DNA of 64,000 nt, from NCBI GenBank assembly GCA_963674965.2, contig CAXXFL010000001.1:352001-416000 (forward strand). Reading direction: 5' to 3'. Shown here piece by piece: positions 10,765 through 47,378 of the stretch (position 1 is the first letter of the stretch; every line of letters begins with the position of its first letter). A model generated the notes under the pieces. The model worked only from the letters and a program-made list of their open reading frames with translations, was not told where the DNA came from and searched no databases. The DNA is from a bacterium (GTDB lineage Bacteria > RBG-13-61-14 > DATKZS01). The position numbers were made by a program, and so were the translations under genes.

Positions 10765-11649
10765 TCACGTAAGCTGGCAGAGTTTCAGCACGTCCTTTTT
10801 CCAATGCGCCTTGCCCCGCCTTTCCAGGCAAGCCTCGATGAACATCCTCTCTTCCTCCTCGGTAAAGGACCGGTTCTTGAGATAATGCCGGATGCAATGG
10901 GCGGTGCGCTTGGGACCGGGCACGCGCCAGGGAAAGCTTTGGTCGAAGTCGAGGAAATAGAACTCGTAGCTCCCGCCGTTCTCGGCCACCATGGTGTTCT
11001 TGTCGGTGTCCTCGGTGTAGACCCCGAGGTCGTGAAGGCGCACCAGGTTATCCAGGAGATCGAGAAGGAATTTTTCGCGCTCCCAGGCGGGAGCGTTCTT
11101 GAAGCGCTCCTGATACTCGTGGAAGTCGACGACGCTCGCGGGAAGCTTCTCGATGAACAGGACCGCGGTCCGGGGAAACCCCAATACCGATTCCTTGAGC
11201 AGGGCCACGGGACGCGTGACCTTGATTCCGTTCTCCTCCAAATAGGCCAGGGTGGCGAAGTTGCGCTCGGCCTCGGTGAAGAAGAACCATCCCTCGATGG
11301 CCCTGAGCGCGTGGGAATACCTGTAAAACTTGGCCAGCACCTGCCGGCCCGAGCCGTCTTGGATGGGATAATCGGCCAATAATTTCCTGCGGTCGACGCC
11401 GGACAGGACGCTCTTGACTTCCTCGGTTTCCTTTAACGCGTCCCAGGCTTTGACGATCTCGATGGTCCTTTCCACCAGGTCGTCGGAGGGAGGAGCCATG
11501 ACCTCTCTTTTGGTAAGGCCGCCGAGCCTGGAGTAGAGGACAACGGGATTTCGGCGATAATAGCCGAACTTGTCCGCGAATACTCTCCACCTCGAGGCGA
11601 TGGACCTGGTATTTTCGCCCTTTTCATTCATGACTACGGATATCCCCAC
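10765..11649 (-). CDS. Lipopolysaccharide kinase (Kdo/WaaP/InaA)-like protein
   Basis: VLAKFY, AERNFATLAYLEENGIKVTRPVA, LHDLGVYTEDTDKN, FYFLDFD. Start uncertain (may be 11631). Confidence 0.72.
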   Translation of the reverse strand: MGISVVMNEKGENTRSIASRWRVFADKFGYYRRNPVVLYSRLGGLTKREVMAPPSDDLVERTIEIVKAWDALKETEEVKSVLSGVDRRKLLADYPIQDGSGRQVLAKFYRYSHALRAIEGWFFFTEAERNFATLAYLEENGIKVTRPVALLKESVLGFPRTAVLFIEKLPASVVDFHEYQERFKNAPAWEREKFLLDLLDNLVRLHDLGVYTEDTDKNTMVAENGGSYEFYFLDFDQSFPWRVPGPKRTAHCIRHYLKNRSFTEEEERMFIEACLERRGKAHWKKDVLKLCQLT

Positions 11650-11743
11650 TTTATCCGAATTTATTTACGAACGTACCCTGTACGTATATTATATAATAAT
11701 TGGCGTTTATTTAAAACTTCCGGGCTTTTCGCTCGCGGATAAA

Positions 11744-12751
11744 TTATCGGGAAGGCCGGGGAGGGGCGGGTTTTCGGCAGGCGGCGCTCATGCGTTTTTG
11801 CCACTTGGGCTTTCCCCTGAAAACCAGGTAGGCCTTGATATAGAGGGCGACGTCGCTCTGATTGAAGTCGGGGCCGTTGAGCATGACCTTGACGTTCTGG
11901 GCCGACCTCCTGAAATTGGGGGTCCGCCAGGGGAAGGCGAAGTCGAAATCGAGGAAATAAAACTTCCAGCCGTCCTTTAAATTCTCGATCATGGCGTTCT
12001 TCTCGAGGTCGTGCGTGTAGAAGCCATGGCGGTGAAGGGCCGCCGCGGCGTGGGCCAGGGCGATGATAAAGGTCCTCCTTTCCTCCTCGCCGAGTTGGCC
12101 GAGCCAGTTAACGTAGGCCTGGTAATCCAGGACCGCTCCTCCCAGCTCCTCCATGAAAAGGACCGCCCGGACCGGCGCGCCAAGCCGCGACTCCACGAGC
12201 AGGGCGACCGGCACGGTCACGTTAAAGCCCTTGTCCTTGAGGTAGAGAAGGTTGATGAAGTTTCTTTCCGGCTCGAGGCGGAGCAGATATTTCTCGACGC
12301 CCCGATATATCTCCTTGCCGGAAAAGTCGTAGTACTTGGCCAGGCATTTGCCGCGGCCGGTCTCGAGACGGGCGGCGGAGATGATTTTCCTTTTATACGT
12401 CGCCTCGATCTCTTCCCTTACCTCCCCGCGCCCCCGCTCCTTGTCCCAGACGGAGACCAACTCGAGGACTTGATCCAGCCCGTACTCGGGGTTGATAAGG
12501 ATTCTCCTTTTATATTTCGAGCCGGGAGGGGAAGGAGCCTTGACATGGGCGTGGGACCGGAAGTGTCTCGTTTTTTCCAGGAACAGCCCCAGGCCGGTCC
12601 TCGGCTCGCCTCCGCCTTGACGCGGGGGTAAAGAATCGCGAGTCGCCAGGATAATATCGAGATTGCCGCCCATGGACTCGACCCATCGCAGGTCCGGCCG
12701 GCCCATGGTTTTTTCGTCGTGCCTTGCCATGCTCATCGACGCCGGCGCCAC
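11744..12751 (-). CDS. Lipopolysaccharide kinase (Kdo/WaaP/InaA)-like protein, paralog of the neighbouring gene
   Basis: CLAKYY, PERNFINLLYLKDKGFNVTVPVA, LHRHGFYTHDLEKN, FYFLDFDFAFPWR. Start uncertain. Confidence 0.72.
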   Translation of the reverse strand: MAPASMSMARHDEKTMGRPDLRWVESMGGNLDIILATRDSLPPRQGGGEPRTGLGLFLEKTRHFRSHAHVKAPSPPGSKYKRRILINPEYGLDQVLELVSVWDKERGRGEVREEIEATYKRKIISAARLETGRGKCLAKYYDFSGKEIYRGVEKYLLRLEPERNFINLLYLKDKGFNVTVPVALLVESRLGAPVRAVLFMEELGGAVLDYQAYVNWLGQLGEEERRTFIIALAHAAAALHRHGFYTHDLEKNAMIENLKDGWKFYFLDFDFAFPWRTPNFRRSAQNVKVMLNGPDFNQSDVALYIKAYLVFRGKPKWQKRMSAACRKPAPPRPSR

Positions 12752-12760: not shown

Positions 12761-14578
12761 CTAGCGGACTCCCCTGGCCTCGAGCGCCCTTATCTCGGCG
12801 GCCCATTTCTCGCGCTCCTCCTCCCCCACCTCCGGGTCGGGAAGAAGCGAGCGGCGCGTGCAGTTGACGAGCGCCTGCAGGGTCTGGTAGCGGCGGGTCA
12901 AGGCTATGGCCGGCGGCAGGTGGTCGCGGATAATGTCCCCTATTACGTCCACCCCCAGCTTTTCGCCCTTGATGATCGAGTGGGCCTTGAGCTCCGAGCG
13001 AAGGGACGCGAAGTTGGCGGCCGACGTGCCCCCGATCATCTCGTCGAGCCTGGTCAGTTCCTCGTCGGTGGGCGGGTGGTCCATTACCGACTCGACCGTC
13101 CAGCGCAGGAACTCTTTTCTGTCGTCGCCCTCCGCGTCGAGTATGGGAATGATCAGGTCTCCCACCCTGCCCGGCCGCCGGATGTCGGGGGAAAGGAGCT
13201 GAATCCTGGCGGTCATCAAAAGCCAGATCACCCGGCCGCGAAGCTTGGGGTCGCTCATCATGGCCTGGATTTTTCCGGTCAGCCTTCTTTCCGTCGAGTG
13301 CGTCTCCGGTCCCACCCCTCCGAACTGGGTGTCGGCCTCATCCACGAAGATAAGCACCTTGGCCAGGGCGTCGAGCACGCGCCGGAGCCGCTCGAAGATG
13401 ACGTCGGTCTGGCCGAACCACTGGCTCCGGATGTTCTTGAGGACCAGTACCACCATGTCCAACTCGCTGGCCACGGCCTCGAAGACGAAGGTCTTGCCGC
13501 CGCCGATGGGGCCGCACACGGCCGCGCCGGGCAGGGCCTCGGCTCCCGCGGCCTTGAAGCGGGGTATCAACTCGGCGCCCAGGAACTCCTTGAGCCTGGA
13601 GAAGCCCACCACGTCGTCCAGGCAATGGCCGGGCTTTTTGAACTCGACTATGTCCTCGCCGAGCTGGCTTTGAATGTGCTCCTCCACCTTGTCCACCACG
13701 TCGGCCAGGGTCAGGTCGCGGCCCTCGTGGATGGCCCCCTTCAAGAGTTGGTTCAGCGCGTGGATCGTGAGACCCGCCGTGAATCGGGCCAGGTCGTTCT
13801 TGTCCCCCCACAGCCTCAGCTTGCGAGTCGAGGACCGGCGGCCGTCGAACCATTCGATGAACTCGAGCCGCTCCTCCTCGTCCGGCGCCGGAACGCTTAC
13901 CTCGATGACCTGGGGAAGACGGGACACCCGGTGGTTGATGAGGCTGCGCGACTCCGAGAAAAGGACCACCGCGTCGCCCCCGTCCATGAAGCCGGGGTCG
14001 GAGAACCAGTCCCGGCAGACGCTCACGCGGTGGCGGTCGGCGTCGGACAGGCTCACTATCTCTCCCTCCGGTATGACCATGTCAGCCGCCTCGATGAGGA
14101 TGATGAGGTCCTCGCTCAAAAGGGGCCGGTCGCCCAGGCGCGCTCGGGAGCAAAGGCACATCTGGCGGAGTATCTCGAGGGCAACGGTCGGGTTGCCCAC
14201 CGCGGACTTGAGGTTGGCGTCAAAGGCCTGGTTCATGGTCTCGAGCTTGGCCCGGGCCTTGTTCGAGGCCAGCATGATCTCGACGGCCAGGGCGTTGTAG
14301 TCCATGCCGCTGCGCCATTTCAGCCAGGCCTCCCTCACCTTCTCCCGGTCCTTGTCGTCGATGAAGCGGATGGGCCCGTTCAGCTCGTAGACGATGAGTA
14401 TCTTGTTCTTGACCGCCCACTGGCCGGTGAGGAAATCCACCAGGGGCGCGTAGCCGGAGTCCGGGCCCGGCTGCCGGAAAAGGTCGTGTATGTTTCCGGT
14501 CATGACGATGACCCTGGACTGTCCCGAGTTGAGGACCCTGCCGGAGATTTTCAGAAACTCGTAATCGGGCGCGCTCAT
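12761..14578 (-). CDS. AAA+ ATPase, classical clade: degenerate N-terminal AAA-like domain plus intact C-terminal AAA domain
   Basis: Walker A GPIGGGKT, pore loop SQWFGQT, Walker B IFVDEAD, Arg-finger region IRRPGRV. The first domain keeps only a Walker-B-like ILIEAAD. Confidence 0.9.
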   Translation of the reverse strand: MSAPDYEFLKISGRVLNSGQSRVIVMTGNIHDLFRQPGPDSGYAPLVDFLTGQWAVKNKILIVYELNGPIRFIDDKDREKVREAWLKWRSGMDYNALAVEIMLASNKARAKLETMNQAFDANLKSAVGNPTVALEILRQMCLCSRARLGDRPLLSEDLIILIEAADMVIPEGEIVSLSDADRHRVSVCRDWFSDPGFMDGGDAVVLFSESRSLINHRVSRLPQVIEVSVPAPDEEERLEFIEWFDGRRSSTRKLRLWGDKNDLARFTAGLTIHALNQLLKGAIHEGRDLTLADVVDKVEEHIQSQLGEDIVEFKKPGHCLDDVVGFSRLKEFLGAELIPRFKAAGAEALPGAAVCGPIGGGKTFVFEAVASELDMVVLVLKNIRSQWFGQTDVIFERLRRVLDALAKVLIFVDEADTQFGGVGPETHSTERRLTGKIQAMMSDPKLRGRVIWLLMTARIQLLSPDIRRPGRVGDLIIPILDAEGDDRKEFLRWTVESVMDHPPTDEELTRLDEMIGGTSAANFASLRSELKAHSIIKGEKLGVDVIGDIIRDHLPPAIALTRRYQTLQALVNCTRRSLLPDPEVGEEEREKWAAEIRALEARGVR

Positions 14579-15525
14579 GCCAGCACTCCTTGTCCTTTTC
14601 CTTCCTCGAGCTGTTTCCAGAAGACGGCCGACCCCTCGGGCGGCTGGAGGTTGCGGGCGTCGAAGGTCGACTCCCTAATTTCCTCGCGCTGCTTGACGAA
14701 GGTATCGAAGTTCCTCGGCTCGTCGGGACGGTAAACGGGGGCGCACCGGTCGTAGACCACCGTGGCCCCGGGCGGCTCCTCGAGCCCGGCTCCTTTCCAG
14801 TCCCAGTACTGGCTAAGGCCTACCACCCTGTCTCCCACGAAAATGGCCTCGTTAAGCTCGTGGGTGACGATGAGGACCGTGTAGGGGGGCGGCTCGTTTC
14901 TCGACCTGGCCTCGAGGTTCTCCGCGTAGAGGTTGAGGAGCAGGCGCTGGAGTTCCTCGCGGGTCGCCTCGTCCAGGGCCCCGAAGGGCTCGTCCAGAAG
15001 AAGTATCTCGGGCTTCATGATCAGCGCCTGGGCCACCGCCACCCTTTGACGCATGCCGCCCGACATCTGGGCCGGATAAAGGTCCACCGCGTCGGCCAGC
15101 TTCAGCTTCTCCAGAAAACTCGTGGCCGCGGCCAGGTGCTCCCTTCTAAGCCCGCGCCATTTCGAGAAGCCCAAAAGACGCCCCGCGACGCTGGTCTGAT
15201 CCAGCTTCAGCCCGAAGGCCACGTTTTGCCTGGCCGTGAGAAAGGGAAAAAGGGAGTACTGCTGGTACACGATGCCCCGGTCGCGTCCTGGCCCCCTGAC
15301 CGCCAGGGCCCTTTCGCTCCCCGCCTCTTTGACCTTGACGCTACCCTCACAAGGCGGGTGGGTGCCCACGATGGCGCGAAGGAGGGTCGATTTGCCGCAG
15401 CCGCTGGGACCGACCAAGGACACGATCTCGCCCCTGATTATCTGAAGGTTCACGTCGTAAAGGACCCGCTTGGGCCCGAACCAGTGGGAAACGCCGCGGC
15501 ACTCGAGGACCAGGTCGCGGTCCAT
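14575..15525 (-). CDS. ABC transporter ATP-binding protein, NitT/TauT family
   Basis: GPSGCGKST, YQQYSLFP, MSGGMRQR, LLLDEPFGALD, VTHEL. Confidence 0.93.
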   Translation of the reverse strand: MDRDLVLECRGVSHWFGPKRVLYDVNLQIIRGEIVSLVGPSGCGKSTLLRAIVGTHPPCEGSVKVKEAGSERALAVRGPGRDRGIVYQQYSLFPFLTARQNVAFGLKLDQTSVAGRLLGFSKWRGLRREHLAAATSFLEKLKLADAVDLYPAQMSGGMRQRVAVAQALIMKPEILLLDEPFGALDEATREELQRLLLNLYAENLEARSRNEPPPYTVLIVTHELNEAIFVGDRVVGLSQYWDWKGAGLEEPPGATVVYDRCAPVYRPDEPRNFDTFVKQREEIRESTFDARNLQPPEGSAVFWKQLEEGKGQGVLA

Positions 15526-15528
15526 GGC

Positions 15529-16335
15529 TCACCTTCCCTCCGGCGAGAACCAGGGGCAAAGCGCCCTTTGCGTCCTTCTCGTCAGGTAGTCCATGGAGAA
15601 GCCGAAGGCCGCCAGCAGGGCGAGGTAGGGGTAGACCACCTCCATGTTCAAAAGCTTGGACTGGAGCCGGATGCGGTAGCCGAAGCCCACGTCGCCCACC
15701 ACCATCTCGGCCGCGATAAGATAGACCATGGCCGGCCCTATTTGCAGGCGGGCCGCGTCGATGATCTTGGGCAGGATGGCGGGAAAGATGACGTTCCAGA
15801 TCAGCTCGGGCTGGGACGCGCCCAGGGTATGGGCCTTGTATAAAAGCTCGTCGGGCACCTCCTTGACGGCCAGGTAGACCGACTGGGACAGGGTGGGCAG
15901 GACCCCGAACACGATCATGGCCACGTACATTTCCGTGTCGGTTCCCACCATGACGAAGAACACGGCCAGGGCCGCCGTGGGAGGGACCTTGGCCAGGAGC
16001 GACATGGGAGGCACCAGGAAGGACTCGAAGGTCGCGTAGCACCCCATCAGGAGTCCCAGGACCACGGCCAGGACCACGCCGATGGAAAGGCCCAGGAAGA
16101 GCCGGATGGCCGTGGCCTTCGAGTCCTCGATCACCCAGCGCTCGCCGCTCCTGGAGTTGGCTAGGACCGCCTTTTTCACGCCCCCGCCCATCTGCTTCCA
16201 AGTGGGTATGGTGGTGTCGTCCGGGTTTTTCACGTGCTGTCTGTAAGATAGCATGGTGTAGAGACCAAGGAGCGCGACCACGGAAAGGGCGCTGAGCAAA
16301 AGGGCGGCGTTCCTGGAGATGGGTTGTCGGATCAT
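15529..16335 (-). CDS. ABC transporter permease, NitT/TauT (SsuC/TauC-like)
   Basis: Multiple TM helices, KVPPTA, EAA-like loop KAHTLGAS, LIAAEM...GFG. Confidence 0.92.
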   Translation of the reverse strand: MIRQPISRNAALLLSALSVVALLGLYTMLSYRQHVKNPDDTTIPTWKQMGGGVKKAVLANSRSGERWVIEDSKATAIRLFLGLSIGVVLAVVLGLLMGCYATFESFLVPPMSLLAKVPPTAALAVFFVMVGTDTEMYVAMIVFGVLPTLSQSVYLAVKEVPDELLYKAHTLGASQPELIWNVIFPAILPKIIDAARLQIGPAMVYLIAAEMVVGDVGFGYRIRLQSKLLNMEVVYPYLALLAAFGFSMDYLTRRTQRALCPWFSPEGR

Positions 16336-16415
16336 ATGATTTTCCCATGGATACGGGGCGGACGCGACGACCGCCGCGCCTCGCCCCTTATTAGTACGTT
16401 AACGATCGGCCGGGC

Positions 16416-17501
16416 TTACTTGCTCGCGGCCTGGTAGGCCTTGACGTAAGCCGGGTCGAGCCTGAAGTTGGCGTCGGCGGCCGCGGCCTTGTCGCCGTAG
16501 CCGACCTTGGGGGCCTTGTCCACGATCTCGTGGTCCACGCAGAACTTGACGACCTTTTCCATGATCCCCTTGGTGGCGTCGTCGGTGAGGACCTTGGTCC
16601 CCTCCTCGGGGGTCGAGTAGAAGCGGGTCTGCTCGACCACCTTCTTCATGGCCTCGAGGTCTAGGTGGGAGAACTTCTCGCCCAGGGCCACGAGGGTCTC
16701 GTCCCGCGTCTTCTCGTCCTTCATCCTCTGGTTGACCTGGTAGAAGGCGTCGATCACGGCGTGGGCGAACTTGTCGCCGCCGGGCTTATCAAGCGACTCC
16801 TGGGACATGACCACCATGTCGATGATCTCGCCGGGTATCTTGGTCGAGTCGAAAAGGACCTTGGCGTCCTTTCTTTTATTCAGGGTCTCGAGCACGAACG
16901 GGTTCCACACCACGATGGCCTCGTAGCCCTCGTGTCCCTGCTGCATGGCCAGGGCGGCCGCGCCCGGGTCCATGTTGGTGAACTTGTAGTCGGCCTCCTT
17001 CTCGCCCAGAAGCTCGAGGTTCCGAACGAAGCAGTACTCGGAGACCGTCTTGGCCAGGCCGTAGACGGGCTTGCCTTTTAGCTGCTTCACGTCGGTCACG
17101 CCGCCGGCCACGATGAGGGCGTCGGCCCCGAAGCTGGTCGAGGTGGGCAGGATGCCGACCGACTTGATGGTCAGGCTGGGGTTTAAAGCGTCCATGTTGG
17201 TGATGCACACGGCGTCCACGTTGCCCGAGCCGTACATCTGGAGGCACGGGTCGTACTCGGCCTCCTTAAGCTCGACGTCCACGCCCCACTTCTTTTCCAC
17301 CGGGCCGAGCTTTCCCTTCTTGCCGTCGATGATCCCGTACTCGTGGGCCACGCCAAAGGCGCTCCATGACGGGTACTCGCTCCAGGCCAAAGAGAAAGTG
17401 GGAACGTCCTCAGCCTCGGCCGTGCCCGCTATCCATACCATCGGGCTGATCGCCAAAACAACCAGGGCGATCCCCAACGCATTCTTCCTTAAGTTTTTCA
17501 T
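16416..17501 (-). CDS. ABC transporter substrate-binding protein (NMT1/SsuA fold; resembles the urea-carboxylase-region SBP group)
   Basis: Signal peptide, LAWSEYPSW, TNMDAL, SFGADA, VVWNP, FDSTKIPGEIIDM. Confidence 0.85.
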   Translation of the reverse strand: MKNLRKNALGIALVVLAISPMVWIAGTAEAEDVPTFSLAWSEYPSWSAFGVAHEYGIIDGKKGKLGPVEKKWGVDVELKEAEYDPCLQMYGSGNVDAVCITNMDALNPSLTIKSVGILPTSTSFGADALIVAGGVTDVKQLKGKPVYGLAKTVSEYCFVRNLELLGEKEADYKFTNMDPGAAALAMQQGHEGYEAIVVWNPFVLETLNKRKDAKVLFDSTKIPGEIIDMVVMSQESLDKPGGDKFAHAVIDAFYQVNQRMKDEKTRDETLVALGEKFSHLDLEAMKKVVEQTRFYSTPEEGTKVLTDDATKGIMEKVVKFCVDHEIVDKAPKVGYGDKAAAADANFRLDPAYVKAYQAASK

Positions 17502-17544
17502 CTCTTCCCTCCTCTCGGTTGAATATAAGTCTACTTCTTGTCCC

Positions 17545-18372
17545 TTACTCGGGCAGGGATTCCTTCTTGTCCGAGGCGGGCGCGGCCTTGGCCGCCGCGT
17601 CGGTCTCTCCCGCCAGTCCCACCAGGGCGTCGAACTCGGAGGTCGAGGCCGAGGTCCTGGCGTACTCGAGGAACTCCGCCTCCTGGACCTTGGCGTCCGT
17701 GCCCGCCAGCTCCTTGGATATCCTGGCCTCGGCCTTGACCTCCTGCCGAAGCTCGCGCATCCTTTGAAGCTCCTTTTCCGCGCCGTCCTCCGCGATGCCC
17801 GCGAAGGCGTCGGCGATCTCCTTCTCCTGCTTGGCCGTGATCATGTCCGCCACCGCGTCGTGGGCCTCGGCCTTGATATTGTCTATGTCGCGAGCCAGGC
17901 TCTGGAGCTGGACCTTGTGCTCGCCTATCCTTTTTCCGTACTCGGCCACGTCCCGCTCGAGCTCGTCGATCCGGGCCTGCTTCTCGGCCAGGGTCGAGCT
18001 GAAGTCGTTATAGGCGGCCAGGCACTTCATGTAATCCTCGTTGGTCTGGATTTCCTCCTTGGATTTTCCCTCGCCCTGAAGGCGGGCCACCTCCTGCTTG
18101 GCCTTGGCCAGGGCCCCGGCCCGAAGGCGCTCGAGCTTCTCGACCTCCTCGGTCAGCCCCTTGACCTTGGCGATCTTGTTCTCCTGCTGGGCAATAAGAC
18201 CCGCCACCGCCTGCTTGTACTGCTGGATGCGGGCGGTCTTGTCGCGTATGACCTCGTCGTACTTGGCCCGCATCACGTGGGGGTTGGTATCCAGGGTGCG
18301 CCTGGCCGCGTCTATCTGGCCGGTCATCAGATACCCCAGCGCCTTAAACCATCTTCCCAAGGCTCCAAACAT
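17545..18372 (-). CDS. PspA/IM30/Vipp1 family (ESCRT-III superfamily) coiled-coil protein
   Basis: Amphipathic N-terminal helix MFGALGRWFKALGYL, then DTNPHVM (compare PspA EDPxxM), long helical hairpin, C-terminal EAEFLEYA...SEFDAL helix. AAAGGAGG RBS. Confidence 0.8.
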   Translation of the reverse strand: MFGALGRWFKALGYLMTGQIDAARRTLDTNPHVMRAKYDEVIRDKTARIQQYKQAVAGLIAQQENKIAKVKGLTEEVEKLERLRAGALAKAKQEVARLQGEGKSKEEIQTNEDYMKCLAAYNDFSSTLAEKQARIDELERDVAEYGKRIGEHKVQLQSLARDIDNIKAEAHDAVADMITAKQEKEIADAFAGIAEDGAEKELQRMRELRQEVKAEARISKELAGTDAKVQEAEFLEYARTSASTSEFDALVGLAGETDAAAKAAPASDKKESLPE

Positions 18373-18452
18373 GGCCCATAGTCCTCCTTTATCTTTATCG
18401 CTTACGTCTTAAAAAATAACTCCCCCCGCCTCGAGGGCCTCGCGGCGGGCTT

Positions 18453-19247
18453 CTATAGCTCCCTGGTTCCCAGTTCCTCGTCCAGGCGCTTCATCCTTTC
18501 CGCCACCGACCTGGCCACCTCGAGGCCCCGGTCGAGCTCCTCGCGGACGCGGGCCAGCTCCGACGCCTGGGAGTCGCTTCCCGCGGTCACGCTCTGGATG
18601 CCCGCCAGGATTTTCCCGAGCTGCTTGATGCTCTCTCCCACGTCGGCGATGATCCGCTCCCTCTGCTGGAGAATCGGTTGTTGCGCGTCCCTGGTGGCCA
18701 TGGTCCTGGCCGTGTTCCAGAGCTGGAGCGTCTTCTCGAGGGACTTGACGCAGCTTCCGAAAAGCTCCTCCACCCGGGAGTTAATGCCCATGGCGGTGAA
18801 GGAATCGACCCCCGCGGACCAGTCCCGGCTCGAGTCGAAGGCCTTGGTCAGGGCCCGAAGATCACGCAGGCTCCACTCGGTGCGGGGGTCCCCGTCGGCC
18901 GCCAGCCGCCGGTCCAGGTCGTCGAGGGCCCGCTCGCGCTCGGCCTGAGCCTCGGCCTCGAGCTCGTGGACCACCTTCTTGCCCAGGTCCTCCTTGCTCA
19001 CGAAAAAGCGCGTGGCCGTTACGCCAACGGCCGCCAGTATGGCCGCGACGCCGGCGAACATGGCCGGTCCCGAGTTCAGGTCGAAGGTCCAAAGGGCCAG
19101 GAGGTCCGTGATTCCCGCCAGGGCCGGGACCAGCGTCCAGGGACTGGCGAAGAGCCTCATGAGCATCTTGCGCCGGAAGGTCGTCCGGTCCAGCGCCTTC
19201 TTCGACACGGCCCCCGCCGCGAGTATGTCCTTGTCTTTGCCCATCAC
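18453..19247 (-). CDS. Hypothetical protein: two N-terminal TM helices plus a cytoplasmic coiled-coil/helical domain
   Basis: Hydrophobic segments at about residues 33-55 and 62-81, then heptad-rich helices; inside the operon, immediately upstream of the PspA-like gene. Confidence 0.8.
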   Translation of the reverse strand: MMGKDKDILAAGAVSKKALDRTTFRRKMLMRLFASPWTLVPALAGITDLLALWTFDLNSGPAMFAGVAAILAAVGVTATRFFVSKEDLGKKVVHELEAEAQAERERALDDLDRRLAADGDPRTEWSLRDLRALTKAFDSSRDWSAGVDSFTAMGINSRVEELFGSCVKSLEKTLQLWNTARTMATRDAQQPILQQRERIIADVGESIKQLGKILAGIQSVTAGSDSQASELARVREELDRGLEVARSVAERMKRLDEELGTREL

Positions 19248-19351
19248 TGAATTATAGCCGACAATTCTCCATCCGGCAGTCGGCTTCGAAAAAGACCGAT
19301 CGTCTTACAATACTCCGACGGCCTCTTTTTGTCTGGCCATCGCGTCATTTT

Positions 19352-19547
19352 TCCCCCGCCAGGGGGATGACATGAATAGCCGTAGGCTTCCAGCCTACGG
19401 GAAAGCGTCCGAATTATCCGCGGCCCTGAAGGGGCCGGACCAAAAAACTTCTCGACAAGTTCGCCCCTTCCAGGGGCGCGTAACTTTGGGGCAAGCCTTC
19501 CGTAGGCCAACGGCCTACGGCTATTCATGTCAACCCCCTCCGGGGGA
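19352..19547. repeat. REPIN/BIME-like nested palindromic element
   Basis: Perfect 20-bp IR TGACATGAATAGCCGTAGGC (19368-19387) / GCCTACGGCTATTCATGTCA (19513-19532), plus three mirrored pairs of small hairpins. Confidence 0.8.
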
Positions 19548-19632
19548 CGGCGGCGGCGACAATGATATAAATCTTGCCATCTCCTCGGCGCGACGTAAAT
19601 GCCAACGCGCCTCAAATCAGCCGACCCTAGCC

Positions 19633-21204
19633 CTAGTACGCGGGCTGCTTGAGCTCGAAGGACACCGACTGGTGGGCGCCGTTGCCGCCCCTGGGCTTGG
19701 CCGCCTCGGCCCTTACCCGGTTGGGGTCCACTCCCGCCGACAAAAGGTAATTGAGGGCCTCCTGGGCCCTCTCCCGGGCCAGCGCCAGGTTGGCGTCGGC
19801 GTCTCCCTCGCTCCGGGCGTGGCCCACCACCAGCAGGTAGTATTGCGGCCACGACTCGAGCTTCCGAGCCAGGTTGTCCATGTCCCGCCGGCTCTGGACG
19901 TTAATGCGGGCCGTTCCCCTGGCGAAGCTGATGGGCTCGATCCGAAGGCTGCCCACCGGCGACAGCTTGTTCCATTCGGCCTCGGAAAGGGGCCTCACCG
20001 CCGCCGAGGTACGGACCTCGTCCAGGTCGTCCGAGTTAAGGCCCAGCCCGTCGATCACGTCTACCTTCTTGGCGGGATGGAAGTTGGCCGCCTGAAGGCT
20101 TCTCAATACGCCGTCGTAAAAAATCGTGTTCGCCTTGCCGCCCAGCGGGTCCTGGCTCATGGCCCCGGTCTTGATAAGGACGTCGGTGATGTTGGCGATG
20201 ATATCCTCGATATGCTGGGCCTGGCCGGCCTGGTGCAGGCCGAAGTAGGCGTAGTTCTCGAGGGTGTTCTTCCACTCGATCCCCTCGACCAGCTTCCTCG
20301 CCTGCTCGTCGGTAAGGGACTCGGACCCGGTGGCCTTGGCGTCGCTTTTGACCAGGGCCTCCATGCCCCCGGTCTTGTGCTCGCTCGAGTAGGCCGAGCG
20401 GAAGTAGGCCTCGACAACGGCCCGGACCAGGTCGGGGTTGTCGCGCAGAAATGTCCTTTCCGCCACCAGCACGTCAACGATGTAGCCCTTCAGCTTGCCC
20501 GAGTCCAGAAGCAAATGGGCCCCGTCGTACTCGAGGGCCCTCGAGACGTAGGGCTCCCACATCACGTAGGCCCTTTTCGAGTTCACGTCCGAGGAGGTCA
20601 TCTTCTTGAAAACGTCGCCCGCCCCGTCGGCCTCCTCCCACCACTTGTCCGGCAGACTGGGAAGGTTGAAGTGGGCTATCACCGTCCGGGCCAAAAACTC
20701 GCTGGGCGAGTTGGGCGTGAGCACGATCCTGGCCTCGGGGTCGTCCAGGTCCTGGACGCTGGCCACGGCGTCCTTAAAGGCCACGATGGCGTCGGCGCCC
20801 TTGGTCTCGTCTATGACCATGACGATGGTGGCGGGAAACTTGCCGATCTTTTCGCCCGAGGTCAAGAAGGAGTCGATGGTAAAGACGGCCATCTGGATTT
20901 TCCTGGAGGCCAGTGCCTTCATGCGGGACTCGTAGTCAGCCGCGTCGTCCTCCACCACCAGCTTGACGCCCTGGGCCTTGAGGTCGTTCCTCATGGCGTC
21001 GCTTCGCAGCACGCAGTAGCCCGAGAAGGAGTCGGCCGCCAGGACGATCTCGTTCTTGTACTGGCTCGAGGAACTGGTCTCGTCGGTCAACTCTCCCCTC
21101 AGCCTCGGCAGGATAAGAAACTTGGTGGCCACGGCCAGGGCGGCCAGGATCACGATCCAAACCGCCGCCGCCGCCAGTATGCCCTTGACGCTTTTTCCGG
21201 CCAT
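19633..21204 (-). CDS. Membrane-anchored NMT1-type substrate-binding protein fused to a C-terminal OmpA-like domain
   Basis: N-terminal TM helix; ADSFSGY, DETKGADAIV, WEPYVS, IVDVLV (PBP2 fold); C-terminal VVGHA...ANLALARERAQ...YLLSAGVDPNRV (OmpA-like). Confidence 0.87.
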   Translation of the reverse strand: MAGKSVKGILAAAAVWIVILAALAVATKFLILPRLRGELTDETSSSSQYKNEIVLAADSFSGYCVLRSDAMRNDLKAQGVKLVVEDDAADYESRMKALASRKIQMAVFTIDSFLTSGEKIGKFPATIVMVIDETKGADAIVAFKDAVASVQDLDDPEARIVLTPNSPSEFLARTVIAHFNLPSLPDKWWEEADGAGDVFKKMTSSDVNSKRAYVMWEPYVSRALEYDGAHLLLDSGKLKGYIVDVLVAERTFLRDNPDLVRAVVEAYFRSAYSSEHKTGGMEALVKSDAKATGSESLTDEQARKLVEGIEWKNTLENYAYFGLHQAGQAQHIEDIIANITDVLIKTGAMSQDPLGGKANTIFYDGVLRSLQAANFHPAKKVDVIDGLGLNSDDLDEVRTSAAVRPLSEAEWNKLSPVGSLRIEPISFARGTARINVQSRRDMDNLARKLESWPQYYLLVVGHARSEGDADANLALARERAQEALNYLLSAGVDPNRVRAEAAKPRGGNGAHQSVSFELKQPAY

Positions 21205-21207
21205 GCC

Positions 21208-22206
21208 TCAGCTCCTCTCTTTTGGGCCGGCCTTGCTCTTTTTCCTTCTCGAGCCTACGGTCCTGGCCGCCGCGTAGACCCCGGCGAAGGCGAACAGTTG
21301 GGCATAGGAGAACATGCCGCCCAGGCATCCCTGGCCCGACCTTTTCGATCCGGAGTTTTGGGGCGGAGTCTTCCGGGCCGTATCGGCGGGGGGCGTCTCC
21401 TTTGAAGGCGGAGTTTCCGGCGGAGGCTCGGTCACGGGCTGGGGCTTGGGCGGCTTCTCGCCGATGGGATGGTTGCCGCTTTCGGTCAGGGCCTCGACCA
21501 TGGCCATGGCCATCTCGTCTGGTATTCCCTCGAGGGCGGAGAAGGCGTCCTCACTCGCCGCGTCGCTTCCAGTGCCGGCCACCTCGGCGAAGACCTCGGC
21601 CACCGCCTTTTTGAGGGAGGCCGGGTCGTCGGCGCGCCTGTAGGAGTTGACCTTGGTGGCCAGGGTATGGTTGCCGGCCATGGCCACGCCGATCACGTCC
21701 ACCGTGACGCCCCGGGCCATGACCTCGGGCGTGTATTCCTCGACCAGCCTGGTGTCCTCGGCCTCCCCGTCCGTCACGATGAGGAGGCGGTAGGAACCGT
21801 AGCCGTACTGCTTGTTCCTTTGCTCGAGCAGCTTGTCGGCGCCCTTCTTGATATACGCTCCAAGAGGGGTGCCGCCGCCGGGCAGGGGCTCGTTGATGGC
21901 GCGCTCGAGCTCCGCGTCGTGGCGGGGCCCCAGCTCGTAGGCCCAGTCGTTCTCGAGGTTCCTGGCGCTGAACACCAGAAGTCCCACGTTGACGTCGGGG
22001 GGAACGGTTTTCAGCACCTCGCGCAGGGCCGTCTTGGCCGCGTCCATTTTCTTGATCTTGGTCCCCCGCATGGTCCCGTCCATGGAACCCGAGGAATCCA
22101 GCACGATGACGACGTTGTCGGCGGCCAGGTCGTCGCCCGCTCCCGCTCCGCCGGCGGAAAGAGCCAGGGCCATAATGGCCGCCAGTATCAATCCGTTTCT
22201 TTTCAT
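21208..22206 (-). CDS. Exported vWA-domain protein with Pro-rich linker and C-terminal membrane anchor
   Basis: Signal peptide; MIDAS motif VLDSSGSM, GGTP, VTDGE; PPKPQP linker; GC-hydrophobic-RRKK tail. Confidence 0.9.
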   Translation of the reverse strand: MKRNGLILAAIMALALSAGGAGAGDDLAADNVVIVLDSSGSMDGTMRGTKIKKMDAAKTALREVLKTVPPDVNVGLLVFSARNLENDWAYELGPRHDAELERAINEPLPGGGTPLGAYIKKGADKLLEQRNKQYGYGSYRLLIVTDGEAEDTRLVEEYTPEVMARGVTVDVIGVAMAGNHTLATKVNSYRRADDPASLKKAVAEVFAEVAGTGSDAASEDAFSALEGIPDEMAMAMVEALTESGNHPIGEKPPKPQPVTEPPPETPPSKETPPADTARKTPPQNSGSKRSGQGCLGGMFSYAQLFAFAGVYAAARTVGSRRKKSKAGPKERS

Positions 22207-22225
22207 GGCCCCATCCCCCCTTGAA

Positions 22226-24067
22226 TTAAAAGTCGAAGTCGCTCGAGGAGGCGGCCTCGGCCGTCACCCGGAGAAGGCGGAACTCGACGCGCATGTTCTG
22301 CTTGGCCTCCTCCATGCTTCTGGGCTTGGCGATGAAGGGCTCCCGAATGCCCGCGCCCACGGCCTGTATCTGGCTCTTGTCCAGCCGTACGCCCTTTTTG
22401 CCCGCGTATTGGATGACCGAGTCCCTGACCGCCTCGGCCCTCTCGCGGGAGAGGTTGAGGGCGGCCTGCATGGTCTGGCGCGGGTTGACGCCCGCGGCGC
22501 CGTCGAACTCGCCCGCCTGTATCAACTCGACTATCTTGCCCGTGTCCTTGAGGTCGAGCGGCCTTCCCTTGAAGGAATACGAGTAGTTGCCCGAGCTTCC
22601 CGAGCGCTTGAGGACGCCCTTTTCCATGCCGGCGTTGACCAGGTCCAGGAGGGTCTTGGTGGGGTCCGAGTGTCCGCGGATGACGATGACGGCGTTTCCG
22701 TAGCGGTTGGCGGTCTCGACCACCCTCTGGTACTCGACTCCGTACTGGACGTCGCTGAACTCGTTCTGGTTGGGCTCGAAGTTGATGGTGAAGCTGACGA
22801 TGGTCCGGTCGTCCAGTCCCCCTCCGCTCTCGAGGGCCTCGATCTCCTTAAGGACCGCCTCGGCCCGGAAACGGTCTCCCTGCTCGACCTTGGTCTTGGT
22901 CAGGTAGCCGGTGAAGGCGGTCGAGTTATAGTCGAAATCGGGCTTGAAGAAGCCGCTTCTCACCGAGGCGTAGCCCCTGCCCGCGGCGAGGTCGAGGGCC
23001 GATTTCTGAAAGGCGTCGAATCCGGAGAGGTTGTTCTTCTGGGTGAAGAAGGCCACGTTGCCGGGGTAGCCCACCAGGGTGCAGTCCGCCAGAAGCCCGT
23101 GGGCGTCCTCCTCGAGGGTCGGTATGGTCTCCTGCCCGTAAATGTCCTGGGTCATCTTGAGGAGGGCCATGTACTCCTTGCTTCCCTTGGCCTCGTAGGC
23201 CTTCTTCAGATCGACAACCTCCTCGCTGGCCTTGAAGTAGCCGGCCACGAACTTCGAGACCAGGTCGCGGTTGGCGTCGAAAAAGTCCTTGCGGCAGGCG
23301 TACACGTCCGCTATCGAGCGCGACATCTCGGCCGTCGAGACCAGTACCCTGGCCCCCTTGACCGTGCCCTCCGCGCCGGTGCCCGCGTTCTGGAGACCGC
23401 CGGTCAGGCCGATCATGTCGGGGCTGATCACGAAGCAGGCGTCCAGGTCGTCGTTCTTCCTGAACATCTCGGCCGGCGACTTGGCGGTGCCGGTCAGGTC
23501 CTCGGCCCAGACCACGGTCACGTCGTCCCAACTCAGGCGCGCGGTCTTAAGTACGTCGTCGAACATGCCCACGTGGGGCCCGCCCTGCTGGAGGACCACT
23601 TTTTTGCCCTTCAGGTCGGCGATGGTCTTCACGCTTTTGCGGGCCACCATGTGGTCGCCGGCGGACCAGGTCATCTGCATGATAATCACGGGCTTGGTGC
23701 GGGCGTCGCTTCCGATAACCTCGCTGGCCATGCCCATCATGCGGAAGGTCCCCCTTAAAAAGGGCGTCTCGCCGGACATGTAATTCTTCACCTGTCCCAC
23801 GAAGTCGTCGCCCGCCACCAGCTTTAAGTTGAGGCCGAGATTCTGGTAGATGCTTCCCGGCTTGGTGGCAAGGCCCCCGTTGGCGTAAAAGGTCACCATG
23901 TCGCCGCCCCAGGTGATATAGGGCACGGTCAAGGGCGAGGTTTTAGTGACGTTTCCGACCTTGACCGGTCCGACCAGGTCCTTGAAGCTTTGCTCTCCCG
24001 CGGCCCGGGCGGTAAAGACCGCCGCGAAAGCCAGGATCGAGGCGGCCAACCTTATTTTCAATCTCAT
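22226..24067 (-). CDS. Exported NMT1-type substrate-binding protein fused to an OmpA-like domain carrying an insertion
   Basis: Signal peptide from ATG 24067 (GGAGG RBS); ITWGGD, TWSAGDH, IADVY; C-terminal INFEPNQ, IRGHSDP...NLSRERAEAVR...AVGAG...NMRVEF. Confidence 0.85.
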   Translation of the reverse strand: MRLKIRLAASILAFAAVFTARAAGEQSFKDLVGPVKVGNVTKTSPLTVPYITWGGDMVTFYANGGLATKPGSIYQNLGLNLKLVAGDDFVGQVKNYMSGETPFLRGTFRMMGMASEVIGSDARTKPVIIMQMTWSAGDHMVARKSVKTIADLKGKKVVLQQGGPHVGMFDDVLKTARLSWDDVTVVWAEDLTGTAKSPAEMFRKNDDLDACFVISPDMIGLTGGLQNAGTGAEGTVKGARVLVSTAEMSRSIADVYACRKDFFDANRDLVSKFVAGYFKASEEVVDLKKAYEAKGSKEYMALLKMTQDIYGQETIPTLEEDAHGLLADCTLVGYPGNVAFFTQKNNLSGFDAFQKSALDLAAGRGYASVRSGFFKPDFDYNSTAFTGYLTKTKVEQGDRFRAEAVLKEIEALESGGGLDDRTIVSFTINFEPNQNEFSDVQYGVEYQRVVETANRYGNAVIVIRGHSDPTKTLLDLVNAGMEKGVLKRSGSSGNYSYSFKGRPLDLKDTGKIVELIQAGEFDGAAGVNPRQTMQAALNLSRERAEAVRDSVIQYAGKKGVRLDKSQIQAVGAGIREPFIAKPRSMEEAKQNMRVEFRLLRVTAEAASSSDFDF

Positions 24068-24149
24068 TATAATCCTCCCTCCGCTGTATGATCGATTCGA
24101 TACTTCCCCGTGAGGCATAACTATCCCATTATGGCTTTAATTTAAGGAT

Positions 24150-24287: not shown

Positions 24288-25682
24288 ATGGATTTACTTC
24301 TTTATACCTCCGTGGACCCGTTCAGTTATCAGATCATACCGGACCTGGGTCTCATGTACGTGGCGGCGGCGGCTCGCGGCTCGGGCTTCGGCGTCGCGAT
24401 CAAGGACTGCCGCAAGGAGGGCTGGGACGCGAGACGGGCGGGTGACCACGCGGGCCGGGAGAAGCCTCTGGTGGTGGGCGTCAAGAGCTACTCGAACGAG
24501 GCCTCGCGTACCTCGGAGATGGCGGCCGAGATCAGGCGGTCCCTGCCCGGGGCGGTCATCATCATGGGCGGTCCTTATCCGTCCATGGACCCGGCGGACG
24601 TTCTGGCCCGTTCTCCGGAGGTTGATTACGCCTTTATGGGGGAGGCGGAAAAGAGCCTTCCCCTTTTTATGGAGTGGGTCAAGGCGGGCCGGGCGGGCGA
24701 GCCCCCCTCCAGCGTGGCCGGCGTGGCCTACAGAAAAGACGGGCGGACGGTCGTCCGTCCACCCGAGTTCCACCGGGACCTCGAGGACCTTCCCCTCCCG
24801 GCCTGGGACCTGATGCCTCCCGAGAAGTACCCGGACGAGGCGGCGGGCATATTCACGCCCGGCTTTCCGGCCGCCCCCATGATGCTCTCGAGGGGATGCC
24901 CCTTCCAGTGCGCCTATTGCGGCGGTCGCTACGTCATGGGTCCCCGCATCAGGTACCGGCCGGCGGCAAGCGTCATCCGGGAGATCGACCTTTTACAAAA
25001 AGAGCACGGCGTCAAGTCGGTCACCTTCGTGGACGACGGCTTCACCACCTCGAGGGAGAGGGCGATCGAGCTGTTCCAGGCCCTGGCCGGGCGCGAGCGA
25101 AAGATCGGCTTCACCTTTCCCAACGGGGTGCGGGCCGACAGCCTGGACCCGGAGATGGTGAGGCTGATGGAAAAGGCCGGCTGCTATTCCCTGGCCCTGG
25201 GGATCGAAAGCGGCTCGGACGAGACCTTGAAGCGGATGAGGAAGCGGCAGACCGTGGAGGGGGTCAGAAAGACGGTCGAGATGATAAGACGCGAGTCGTC
25301 CATACGGGTGACGGGGTTCTTCATTCTCGGCTACCCCGGCGAGAGCCTGGCCGACGTGCGGGAAACCATCAGGTTCGCCGCCGGACTGCCCATCCATCAC
25401 GCCCACTTCTGTCTTTTCATTCCCGTGCCGGGGACCCCCGTCCACGAGGAGTTGCTCGAGAAAGGCTGGATATCGGACCGCTACTGCGACCCCGAGGACC
25501 TGACCATCGACCGGGCCGGGACCGAGCTTCCCGGCCTTCCCACCCGGAAGCTCCTGCGTCTCCACCAATACGCCTACCTGCGTTTCTACTCGTCCCCCTG
25601 GCGGGCGCTGAACCTGGTCCTCCAGCTTCACGGCGGCGGCCATTTCAAGGTCATCCTTCGAAGGTTCTTAAAGCTGTTCTGA
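24288..25682 (+). CDS. Cobalamin-binding-domain radical SAM protein
   Basis: N-terminal B12-binding-like domain (PDLGLMYVAA, MGGPYPS, GEAE); SRGCPFQCAYC; GIESGS; GFFILGYPGE. Confidence 0.92.
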   Translation: MDLLLYTSVDPFSYQIIPDLGLMYVAAAARGSGFGVAIKDCRKEGWDARRAGDHAGREKPLVVGVKSYSNEASRTSEMAAEIRRSLPGAVIIMGGPYPSMDPADVLARSPEVDYAFMGEAEKSLPLFMEWVKAGRAGEPPSSVAGVAYRKDGRTVVRPPEFHRDLEDLPLPAWDLMPPEKYPDEAAGIFTPGFPAAPMMLSRGCPFQCAYCGGRYVMGPRIRYRPAASVIREIDLLQKEHGVKSVTFVDDGFTTSRERAIELFQALAGRERKIGFTFPNGVRADSLDPEMVRLMEKAGCYSLALGIESGSDETLKRMRKRQTVEGVRKTVEMIRRESSIRVTGFFILGYPGESLADVRETIRFAAGLPIHHAHFCLFIPVPGTPVHEELLEKGWISDRYCDPEDLTIDRAGTELPGLPTRKLLRLHQYAYLRFYSSPWRALNLVLQLHGGGHFKVILRRFLKLF

Positions 25683-31023: not shown

Positions 31024-32027
31024 AACGCGCCGGGCTCCATTCCCAGGTCTTCTATCATTTGCAGGTCCTCCTTGGGGTCTCGACCGGAGGTCGTAAGGTA
31101 ATTGCCTATCATCAGGCCGTTGGCCCCGGCCTCGAAGACCAGGGCCTGAAGGTCGCGAAGGTTCACTTCCCTGCCCCCGCAAATGATGATCCTGGCCCTG
31201 GGCGAGACCAGGCGGAGCATGGCTATGGTAAGGAGGGCCTCGAGGGGTACAATACCCGGGGCCTTCTTCGCCATGGGCGTGCCGGGGATGGGGTTAAGGA
31301 AGTTCACCGGTATCGAGGCGACCTCGAGGTCCCTCAGTAAAAGGGCCAGCTCGACGCGCTCCTCGAAGCTCTCTCCAAGGCCGAATATGCCGCCCGAGCA
31401 GGTTTTGATTCCCTTTTCCCCGGCCGCCCGGACCGCCTGAACGTCCTCCTCGTAATCGTGGGTCGTACAGATTTGGGGGAAAAACGACCGGGAGGTCTCG
31501 AGGTTGTGATGATATCGGGAGAGACCAGCGTCGATCCATTTATCGAGCGTCTCGGGGGAGACCATTCCGGGGGAGACGCACGGGTTGATCCCTATTTTCC
31601 TTATGCCCTCGATGGCCCTGGCCACCTGGTCGATCTCGTGGGCGGCGGTAATACCTTTTCCGGAGGTCACGATCGAGAACTCGCTCGCGCCGTTTTCCCG
31701 CGCGCTTTTGGCGGCCTCGATCAATTCCTCGGCCGGGAGGAGTGGATGCGTCTTTACCCCGGTTTTATGGGCGGACGACTGGGCGCAAAAAGCGCAGTCC
31801 TCCGAGCAAAGGCCAGACTTGGCGTTCACGATCGAGCAAAGCATGACCTTGTTGCCGGAAAGGTTTCGCCGCATAAGGGAGGTCAGGGGAAGCAGGGAGA
31901 AGGCGTCGCGGCCCTTAATTTTTCCGAGCGCAAGGGCTACCTCCCGCGCTATTCCGTCCGATCCGGGCACAAGATTGGCGGCCAAGTCGTGAAAGCGGGA
32001 AATAAAGGGGGGTAAAGGAATCACCAT
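31020..32027 (-). CDS. bioB: Biotin synthase
   Basis: NAKSGLCSEDCAFCAQS, YHHNLETS, CSGGIFGLGE, GNYLTT. Confidence 0.96.
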   Translation of the reverse strand: MVIPLPPFISRFHDLAANLVPGSDGIAREVALALGKIKGRDAFSLLPLTSLMRRNLSGNKVMLCSIVNAKSGLCSEDCAFCAQSSAHKTGVKTHPLLPAEELIEAAKSARENGASEFSIVTSGKGITAAHEIDQVARAIEGIRKIGINPCVSPGMVSPETLDKWIDAGLSRYHHNLETSRSFFPQICTTHDYEEDVQAVRAAGEKGIKTCSGGIFGLGESFEERVELALLLRDLEVASIPVNFLNPIPGTPMAKKAPGIVPLEALLTIAMLRLVSPRARIIICGGREVNLRDLQALVFEAGANGLMIGNYLTTSGRDPKEDLQMIEDLGMEPGAL

Positions 32028-32034
32028 CCAGGGT

Positions 32035-32063
32035 ATGTTATTACCCCCAAGCCGATTGGTCAA
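32035..32063 (-). promoter_or_regulatory. Sigma70 promoter of bioB, consistent with a leaderless transcript
   Basis: TTGACC-17 bp-TAACAT, ending 7 nt before ATG 32027. Confidence 0.6.
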
Positions 32064-32159
32064 GGGTAAAGATCGGCATAATGATCAAGTTTGGCCGCCC
32101 GGAGCTGGAATTTTTTTATCGATTGGGAAAATAATTTATCTGGATGAAATTCATAAACG

Positions 32160-32363: not shown

Positions 32364-32374
32364 AAAAATATACT

Positions 32375-32390
32375 AGCAAACCTTGTGCCG
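32375..32390 (-). promoter_or_regulatory. Sigma54 (-24/-12) promoter
   Basis: Minus strand CGGCACAAGGTTTGCT (GG-N10-GC). Two copies of TTTACA-N4-TTGTCA upstream (32476-32491, and inverted at 32546-32561). Confidence 0.6.
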
Positions 32391-46072: not shown

Positions 46073-46077
46073 ACCGG

Positions 46078-47315: not shown

Positions 47316-47378
47316 AATAATATGGACGTGTATGGCGAGAGGGTCGTGCGTTTCGCCCTCCGCTTTTATGGTCCGTTA

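Follow-up and report, generated by a model that had tools for sequence, protein, structure and literature searches.

How polymers of bacterial PspA/Vipp1 proteins are disassembled is an open question, and a locus in a 64-kb stretch of bacterial DNA (positions 352,001 to 416,000 of contig CAXXFL010000001.1, assembly GCA_963674965.2; hereafter the window) offers a concrete two-protein system in which to test it. The locus is an unbroken row of nine genes on the minus strand (12761..24118), among which are a gene for a divergent PspA-like protein and a gene for a tandem AAA ATPase (Table 1). A sequence-only reading of this DNA had proposed that the two products form a bacterial counterpart of ESCRT-III and Vps4, the ATPase disassembling or remodelling polymers of the PspA-like protein. 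The analysis reported here supports that interpretation in part. Both open reading frames stand as they had been read, and so do most of the features ascribed to their products, whereas the ATPase turns out not to be Vps4-like and the two genes do not form a pair in the window, where three ATP-binding cassette (ABC) transporter genes (14575-17501) lie between them. Vps4-like remodelling of PspA polymers is nevertheless the best reading of the locus, which we infer from genomic context alone, and we consider it probable, if only slightly so, that the nine genes make up a self-contained membrane-maintenance cassette around a polymer-forming protein of the PspA/ESCRT-III type and a dedicated ATPase that would remodel its polymers.

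A divergent member of the PspA family

The assignment of the 275-residue protein to the PspA family falls below threshold when the protein is taken singly and is firm at the level of profiles. The PF04012 model gives the window protein 18.5 bits, against a gathering cut-off of 33.9, a few of its database relatives carry a precomputed match to this family, and 19 of 44 members of the PspA-like family are matched at E<=0.01 (best 4e-6). When a profile of these 44 diverse members was aligned by hhalign with one of 28 canonical PspA proteins, the probability was 99.1% and the E-value 1.2e-18 over 220 columns, which run from the N-terminal helix to residue 251. On the strength of this alignment, homology of the PspA-like protein with PspA can be regarded as established. 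Searches of the PDB were less informative, the single sequence finding no match and the family profile recovering marginal Vipp1 rows alone (E 0.5-8). Against 1.84 billion representatives, the same profile gathered 603 clusters (50% identity) at E<=1e-3, indicating a large and distinct family; all of the 150 matches listed for these clusters are family members, with no bridge to canonical PspA among them. The genome that harbours the window also encodes a canonical PspA on another contig (G000:C7:216631-217284 = L081:1456-2193, minus strand; PF04012 71.6 bits), and a PF04012 search of this genome at E<=1 does not return the PspA-like gene of the window among its matches.

The predicted structure points in the same direction. 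The AlphaFold2 (AF2) model of the PspA-like protein (predicted local distance difference test score, pLDDT, 80.3) consists of helices spanning residues 2-29, 31-100 and 112-241, and contains the N-terminal helix, the long alpha1-alpha2/3 hairpin and the further helices of the ESCRT-III fold. In a Foldseek search with this model, Vipp1/PspA structures account for nine of the ten highest-ranking matches (E 6e-4 at best); comparisons based on geometry only do not discriminate among long helical hairpins. An ESCRT-III-type fold, on which the sequence-only reading had made its proposal depend, is thus predicted for the product of this gene. The insertion that had been suspected at the tip of the hairpin is apparent both as a gap in the profile alignment and as a turn in the model, and it is three residues shorter in Pirellulaceae-type copies.

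The C-terminal tail had been described as flexible and charged, and as a possible handle for threading. Flexible it appears to be, judging from the model; charged it is only mildly, residues 252-275 comprising 5 acidic, 3 basic and 14 small residues. Its end is conserved: the last 24 residues vary in length and sequence among homologues, yet they end in L-P-E. A [LIVM]-P-[EDQ] motif within the last six residues is present in all 120 close homologues, in all 59 copies taken from the related loci described below and, for the wider family, in 77 of the 135 full-length representatives of 50% clusters. The 120 canonical PspA proteins compared have KVEKTI or a similar sequence at their C-terminus, and none carries the motif. 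The canonical PspA of the same genome and its relatives likewise show a conserved C-terminal KVEKTI, unlike the LPE of the PspA-like protein in the cassette. Placed at a free C-terminus behind a disordered linker, [LIVM]-P-[EDQ] is a candidate handle for recognition by a partner. A complex prediction for the full ATPase with residues 195-275 of the PspA-like protein, run without controls, gave ipSAE values of 0.02 and 0.00 (mark, 0.32).

A tandem AAA protein with one degenerate module

The motifs from which the ATPase had been assigned to the classical clade (GPIGGGKT, SQWFGQT, DEAD and RRPGR) all occur in the translated sequence, and an alignment of 43 homologues shows them to be conserved (Table 1). 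The first AAA-like domain, D1, had been called degenerate, and the evidence agrees. Its AF2 model (residues 1-330; pLDDT 87.9), in which the module begins near residue 20, retrieves at least 500 Foldseek matches at E<=1e-3, and all those listed are AAA+ ATPases, with Ycf2-FtsHi, Trip13, Pex1/6, p97 and Rpt subunits in the top rows (E 5e-7 to 7e-6). Residues 1-330 contain no GK[ST], and PF00004 matches the protein in the second module only. The relationship is visible at the level of structure: a sequence profile of D1 finds nothing in the PDB, and an hhalign comparison of D1 with D2 yields only an artefact of overlap at the module boundary. D2 carries the complete set of motifs, followed by a conserved C-terminal extension of about 60 residues. 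Judged by motifs and models, the protein is a tandem AAA ATPase with a dead first module and an active-looking classical second module. On paper it would work as a threading unfoldase, probably in the form of a hexamer.

The closest solved relatives of the ATPase are VAT, p97 and Cdc48 (PDB, E 2e-23 to 1e-20). In the alignment with the VAT structure, 'lmTARi' lies over 'gaTNRi', which places Ala457 at the position of the sensor-1 Asn and bears out the earlier remark that the sensor-1 region reads MTAR instead of the usual TN. The same genome encodes a 589-aa tandem-AAA paralogue with the same two-module layout (G000:C1:939229-940173 = L088:7852-9621, minus strand). This paralogue is 28% identical over residues 18-480 and keeps a TNR sensor-1 and a KWVG pore loop; hence, the sensor-1 change is specific to the PspA-linked subfamily. 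It resides in an unrelated neighbourhood, with genes for a 3-hydroxyacyl-CoA dehydrogenase and TPR proteins, and similar copies occur in the four other genomes of the same family.

The sequence-only reading had set the ATPase apart from the sigma54 activator PspF, and rightly so, as neither a sigma54_activat domain nor a DNA-binding helix-turn-helix is present and the sole families matched at E<=0.01 are PF00004 and a sub-threshold AAA_22. The likeness to Vps4, on the other hand, does not extend to architecture, because the ATPase has no MIT domain and is built in tandem. Residues 1-330 form one AAA-like module, leaving no space for a separate N-terminal domain. Its scores stay far below the cut-offs of both reference models, with 34 bits for CdvC (NF041006; cut-off 650) and 67 bits for CDC48 (TIGR01243; cut-off 802.65). 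It is therefore neither an orthologue of Vps4 nor a member of its family, and a functional analogue at best.

Linkage and distribution of the two genes

A scan of species-representative genomes returned 305 relatives of the ATPase, from which the best 80 loci were kept (designated by L numbers). The PspA-like gene is directly upstream of the ATPase gene in 22/80 loci (gap 15-218 bp; the short form) and separated from it by ABC genes only, as in the window, in 33/80 (the long form), while in three more it lies at another distance (716-1628 bp). Seven of the 80 loci show no PspA-like copy within at least 4.5 kb upstream, nor anywhere in the locus at E<=1e-3; in 12 the locus does not reach far enough upstream, and in the remaining three the AAA open reading frame is unresolved. 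A homologue search of the loci recognises a PspA-like copy also in L016 and in L048, which is truncated, bringing the total to 60/80. Around the PspA-like/ATPase pair, no other gene is conserved in the six short-form loci examined. Moreover, where an ATPase locus lacked the PspA-like gene and its genome was followed up (5 genomes; L067 and L071 left out), that gene was found elsewhere in the genome every time, in one copy each. Among 41 genomes of one phylum, both genes are present in 9, adjacent and on one contig, and neither in 31; a single genome has the ATPase only, at 2.1 kb from the end of a contig, and none has the PspA-like gene only.

According to a maximum-likelihood tree of 57 ATPases, there have been at least 6-7 switches between the long and the short form, and the transporter block is therefore the variable element beside a pair that persists. 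The pairwise distances of ATPases and PspA-like proteins are also correlated (r 0.77, n=57), a value reached by 0/2000 permutations. Both the conservation of gene order and the co-occurrence of the two genes in genomes of different phyla support a link between them. Two loci of the set are peculiar in themselves. In L023 (1-11812), about 8 kb of other DNA separates the ABC ATPase and AAA genes, and the PspA-like gene belonging to the same genome is found immediately outside the locus; in L043 (10001-11821), the AAA gene has an internal stop codon, making a pseudogene or an assembly error possible.

Within the phylum of the window, the cassette occurs in 1/13 genomes searched, that of the window alone. 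Homologues of about 70% identity are found in Sumerlaeota, Myxococcota, Thermodesulfobacteriota, Acidobacteriota, Planctomycetota, Verrucomicrobiota, Hydrogenedentota and others, and the ATPases nearest to the window copy on the tree come from Myxococcota, Sumerlaeota, Thermodesulfobacteriota and Acidobacteriota. This distribution fits horizontal spread of a self-contained module. A full bacterial-type cassette is also carried by a locus labelled Bathyarchaeia (L007, contig DATKVG010000055.1). No Cdc48 over the cut-off was found in the L007 genome, nor any CdvC in the 41 genomes searched of its phylum, L007 included, and either the label or the binning of L007 looks wrong.

Proposed mechanism and competing explanations

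A mechanism can be sketched in which the PspA-like protein would coat or remodel the cytoplasmic face of the inner membrane and the ATPase would recognise it, most plausibly through the disordered C-terminal tail with its [LIVM]-P-[EDQ] motif. By pulling PspA-like subunits through the aromatic pore loop (W387-F388-G389), the ATPase could then disassemble, recycle or reshape the polymers. It would thereby do the job that Vps4 does on ESCRT-III, as a non-orthologous, Cdc48-like tandem AAA protein. In the long form, the core pair would be expressed together with the ABC importer, two peptidoglycan-tethered solute-binding proteins (SBPs), a periplasmic vWA protein and a protein with two transmembrane segments (2-TM), tying the membrane activity to the envelope. 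A bolder version of this scheme, which we deem possible and rather doubtful, has the tandem AAA protein read the C-terminal hydrophobic-Pro-Glu of the PspA tail, as a bacterial counterpart of the MIM-MIT handshake, and thread the subunits, so that the two proteins would be a true ATP-driven ESCRT-III recycling machine. The core pair is compact, its short form consisting of two genes, and it provides convenient handles for mutagenesis (E414Q, W387A, A457N, and deletion of the tail or of LPE).

Several observations weigh against remodelling of PspA polymers by this ATPase. On the side of the presumed substrate, the tail motif is missing in 58 of the 135 divergent representatives, many of which end in a looser hydrophobic-x-Glu, and the N-terminal helix (residues 2-19) has an unremarkable hydrophobic moment, reached by 10.5% of shuffles. 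On the side of the motor, the sensor-1 Asn is replaced by an Ala that is invariant in the 43 homologues. This Asn position supports hydrolysis in other AAA proteins, and the motor may therefore be slow or work differently. The D1 model and its Foldseek matches also reveal no separate substrate-recognition domain, such as MIT, in the ATPase. As for the association of the two, the ATPase gene sits beside ABC permease/ATPase genes with no PspA-like gene within 10 kb in five loci (L023, L031, L067, L072 and L076), and the ATPase distances follow those of the ABC ATPase (r 0.83) no less closely than those of the PspA-like protein (r 0.79), the values for the ABC ATPase and the SBP-OmpA protein being 0.82-0.83 (n=24). 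Correlations this even across the cassette argue for co-inheritance of the whole, and thus do not single out the PspA-like protein as the substrate.

Some of these same points would suit a relationship of another kind, in which the PspA-like protein is not the substrate of the ATPase and serves instead as its membrane-bound adaptor or inhibitor, and the ATPase, upon release or recruitment by PspA, acts on other clients, for instance damaged membrane proteins or components of the linked transporter, by extracting or unfolding them. There is a precedent in E. coli, where PspA inhibits the AAA+ protein PspF, a sigma54 enhancer-binding protein with a DNA-binding domain. An ATPase devoid of its own recognition domain could make sense of an adaptor, the five loci with ABC genes and no nearby PspA-like gene are compatible with other clients, and co-inheritance extends to the whole cassette, every gene pair tested showing a distance correlation in the range 0.74-0.83. 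The ATPase has no sigma54-activator or helix-turn-helix features, however, and the 22 loci in which the pair stands directly together, with nothing else conserved in the six examined, require any other client to be encoded elsewhere. A conserved C-terminal motif on a disordered tail is, besides, more like the handle of a threading motor. We consider regulation or adaptation of this sort unlikely, though far from negligible.

The composition of the long form invites a different emphasis: with five of the nine genes coding for transporter or solute-binding parts and the nine-gene order kept in 27/80 loci, the locus could be a specialised, cell-wall-tethered ABC import system to which the PspA-like protein and the ATPase contribute as accessory factors for quality control or assembly of the transporter or of a vWA/OmpA complex. 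This seems improbable in view of the short form, which is without any transporter gene, and of the repeated interchange of the two forms on the ATPase tree, which makes the transporter block the dispensable part. The patchy distribution (one of 13 genomes in its own phylum, homologues of about 70% identity and the nearest ATPases on the tree in other phyla) could in turn suggest a mobile stress or anti-phage module that guards the membrane against phage or envelope attack and is no part of housekeeping. We regard this as very improbable. PADLOC returns weak generic matches only (IetA 8e-5, in the P-loop region; ZorA 6e-4, in a coiled coil), the genes on either side of the cassette serve housekeeping functions (haem and biotin synthesis), the 64 kb contain no tRNA gene, and the 13 flanking open reading frames scanned include no integrase-type family. 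Such a role would moreover concern the trigger of the system and not its mechanism, and would be compatible with remodelling of PspA polymers by the ATPase, which we continue to prefer.

Comparison with known systems

Operons of this type, and the idea that they remodel membranes, are already in print as a genomic prediction. Using comparative genomics, Ravi et al. (2024, mSystems 9:e00847-23; PMC11237479, section 18) describe operons that combine PspA with an 'inactive AAA + AAA' protein, as well as longer ones in which an ABC ATPase, permease and PBPB-OmpA protein are encoded too, and propose for them an ATP-dependent membrane remodelling comparable to that of Snf7/Vps4, which is the reading reached independently here. 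The cassette in the window shares with the operons in those passages the PspA protein, the tandem AAA with an inactive N-terminal copy, the ABC ATPase, the permease, the SBP-OmpA fusion and a transmembrane helical protein; nothing is said there of a vWA gene, a second SBP-OmpA fusion, a conserved motif in the tail or an altered sensor-1. What is added here is the profile-level homology to PspA with a mapped insertion, structural support for a dead D1, the sensor-1 Ala as compared with the TNR of the paralogue, the tail motif and the co-occurrence counts. Our literature search found no experimental study of the PspA-like/ATPase pair.

With the archaeal and eukaryotic ESCRT-III/Vps4 systems (CdvB/CdvC), the cassette has in common a gene for a polymer protein of the ESCRT-III superfamily together with a classical-clade AAA protein that has an aromatic pore loop, and also the flexible C-terminal tail of the polymer protein with its short conserved motif; in ESCRT-III tails, MIM motifs serve Vps4. 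The differences lie in the ATPase, which is without MIT and has two AAA modules instead of one and a sensor-1 Ala instead of Asn, and in the polymer protein, which comes from the PspA branch and not from the Snf7 branch. The ATPase is closer to Cdc48/p97/VAT, which supply its best matches in the PDB (E 2e-23) and in NCBIfam (CDC48, 67 bits), are likewise tandem AAA proteins and include, in D2 of p97, a pore loop that its W-F-G resembles. Unlike them, it scores far below the family cut-off, lacks the N-terminal double-psi-barrel domain, has a D1 without Walker A and possesses the additional conserved C-terminal extension. The E. coli PspA-PspF system, finally, also ties a PspA-family protein functionally to an AAA+ protein, whereas the ATPase in the window is of the classical-clade pore-loop type, with no sigma54-activator or DNA-binding domain.

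A 2025 review states that a Vps4-like ATPase appears to be absent from bacteria (PMC7619361). For Makarova et al. (2024, PMC10936438), ESCRT systems, understood as vps4 together with ESCRT-III, are restricted to archaea and eukaryotes, and Vps4 descends from Cdc48 through the loss of one ATPase domain. If the bolder version of our proposal were true, a Cdc48-like double AAA protein with one dead module, acting on a PspA-type polymer, would resemble the intermediate between Cdc48 and Vps4 that is postulated in that part of the latter scenario (PMC10936438).

Composition of the cassette and flanking DNA

The features of the cassette are collected in Table 1. The first gene, when its homologue is present, is upstream and in the same order every time, and a strong terminator-like hairpin (24740-24765, minus strand) precedes it in the window on the 5' side. 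At the other end, the stop codon of the ABC ATPase gene and the start codon of the AAA gene overlap in ATGA. The SBP-OmpA fusions and the ABC importer, as far as their domains indicate, would put part of the system in the periplasm and tie it to peptidoglycan.

Table 1. Genes of the cassette, in order of transcription, and features mapped within the PspA-like protein and the ATPase.
Feature	Position	Strand	Characteristics	Loci with counterpart
Periplasmic solute-binding + OmpA-like peptidoglycan-binding fusion, first cassette gene	22226..24118	-	630 aa, signal peptide; Pfam NMT1 5e-7, weak OmpA match; NCBIfam SsuA_fam, YiaD/OmpA	27/80
vWA-domain protein	21208..22206	-	332 aa; signal peptide, intact DSSGS MIDAS motif, C-terminal hydrophobic anchor; Pfam VWA 9e-13	28/80
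Second solute-binding + OmpA fusion	19633..21204	-	523 aa, N-terminal membrane anchor; Pfam OmpA 1.4e-11, NMT1 6e-4; TIGR03427 8e-12	30/80
2-TM protein with cytoplasmic helical domain (predicted)	18453..19247	-	264 aa; alignment of 29 homologues	38/80
Divergent PspA/IM30 (ESCRT-III superfamily) protein	17545..18372	-	275 aa; profile homology, AF2 model, Foldseek	
Hairpin-tip insertion relative to canonical PspA, residues 100-124	18001..18075	-	25-column hhalign gap; model turn at 101-111	
Disordered C-terminal tail, residues 252-275, ending L-P-E (17548-17556)	17548..17619	-	pLDDT below 50	
ABC importer periplasmic substrate-binding protein	16416..17501	-	361 aa; TIGR03427 2e-48 (below cut-off), SsuA_fam 2e-16	33/80
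ABC permease	15529..16335	-	268 aa; Pfam BPD_transp_1 2.6e-15; TauC 6.6e-23 (below cut-off)	41/80
ABC ATP-binding subunit	14575..15525	-	316 aa; Pfam ABC_tran 1.7e-31	46/80
Tandem AAA ATPase	12761..14578	-	605 aa; modules D1 and D2	
D1, residues 1-330	13589..14578	-	AAA fold without Walker A; AF2 model, Foldseek	
D2, residues 331-605	12761..13588	-	Classical AAA + conserved C-terminal extension; PF00004 8.5e-14 (residues 354-473)	
Walker A GPIGGGKT, residues 356-363	13490-13513	-	Invariant in 43 homologues	
Pore loop SQWFGQT, residues 385-391	13406-13426	-	W387-F388-G389 aromatic-hydrophobic-Gly; invariant in 43 homologues	
Walker B/DEAD, DEAD residues 413-416 (hhhhDE 409-414)	13331-13342	-	Invariant in 43 homologues	
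MTAR, sensor-1 region, residues 455-458	13205-13216	-	T456, A457, R458 invariant in 43 homologues	
RRPGR, residues 467-471	13166-13180	-	Arg fingers 468 + 471; invariant in 43 homologues	

The 2-TM protein is the transmembrane member of the cassette for which a further relationship to ESCRT-III has been put forward, the corresponding protein being presented in the passages of Ravi et al. (2024) as a membrane-anchored Snf7 homologue. This label was not reproduced here by either hmmscan or hhalign: no Pfam family, Snf7 included, is matched at E<=1 in 29 members of the 2-TM family, and the hhalign probability is 0.4% when this family is compared with canonical PspA and 3.5% when it is compared with the PspA-like one. 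Its sequence profile finds nothing in the PDB. The Rv2743c family, suggested by feature matching in the Atlas (score 0.88), is a lead only; Rv2743c is PspM, the mycobacterial membrane partner of PspA. Between the genes for the 2-TM and PspA-like proteins (18373-18452, minus strand), there is a GC-rich hairpin with a T-run after it (18423-18437), as well as a strong ribosome-binding site, AAGGAGG. The hairpin and T-run 5' of the PspA-like gene could act as a partial terminator, or as an attenuator, and so determine the proportion in which the two proteins are made.

Downstream of the ATPase, two tandem genes for Kdo/WaaP-like kinases (10765-12751, minus strand; 335 and 294 aa), the first of which begins 9 bp past the AAA stop codon, are not represented in any of the 80 related loci and are therefore not counted as members of the cassette. 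A promoter-like site (11688-11715, minus strand) is located 5' of the second of these kinase genes. Elsewhere in the window, G+C content falls to 0.53-0.55 at 32001-34000 and 46001-50000, compared with about 0.63 in the remainder, and a strong positive AT skew marks the intervals 42-44 kb and 54-56 kb.

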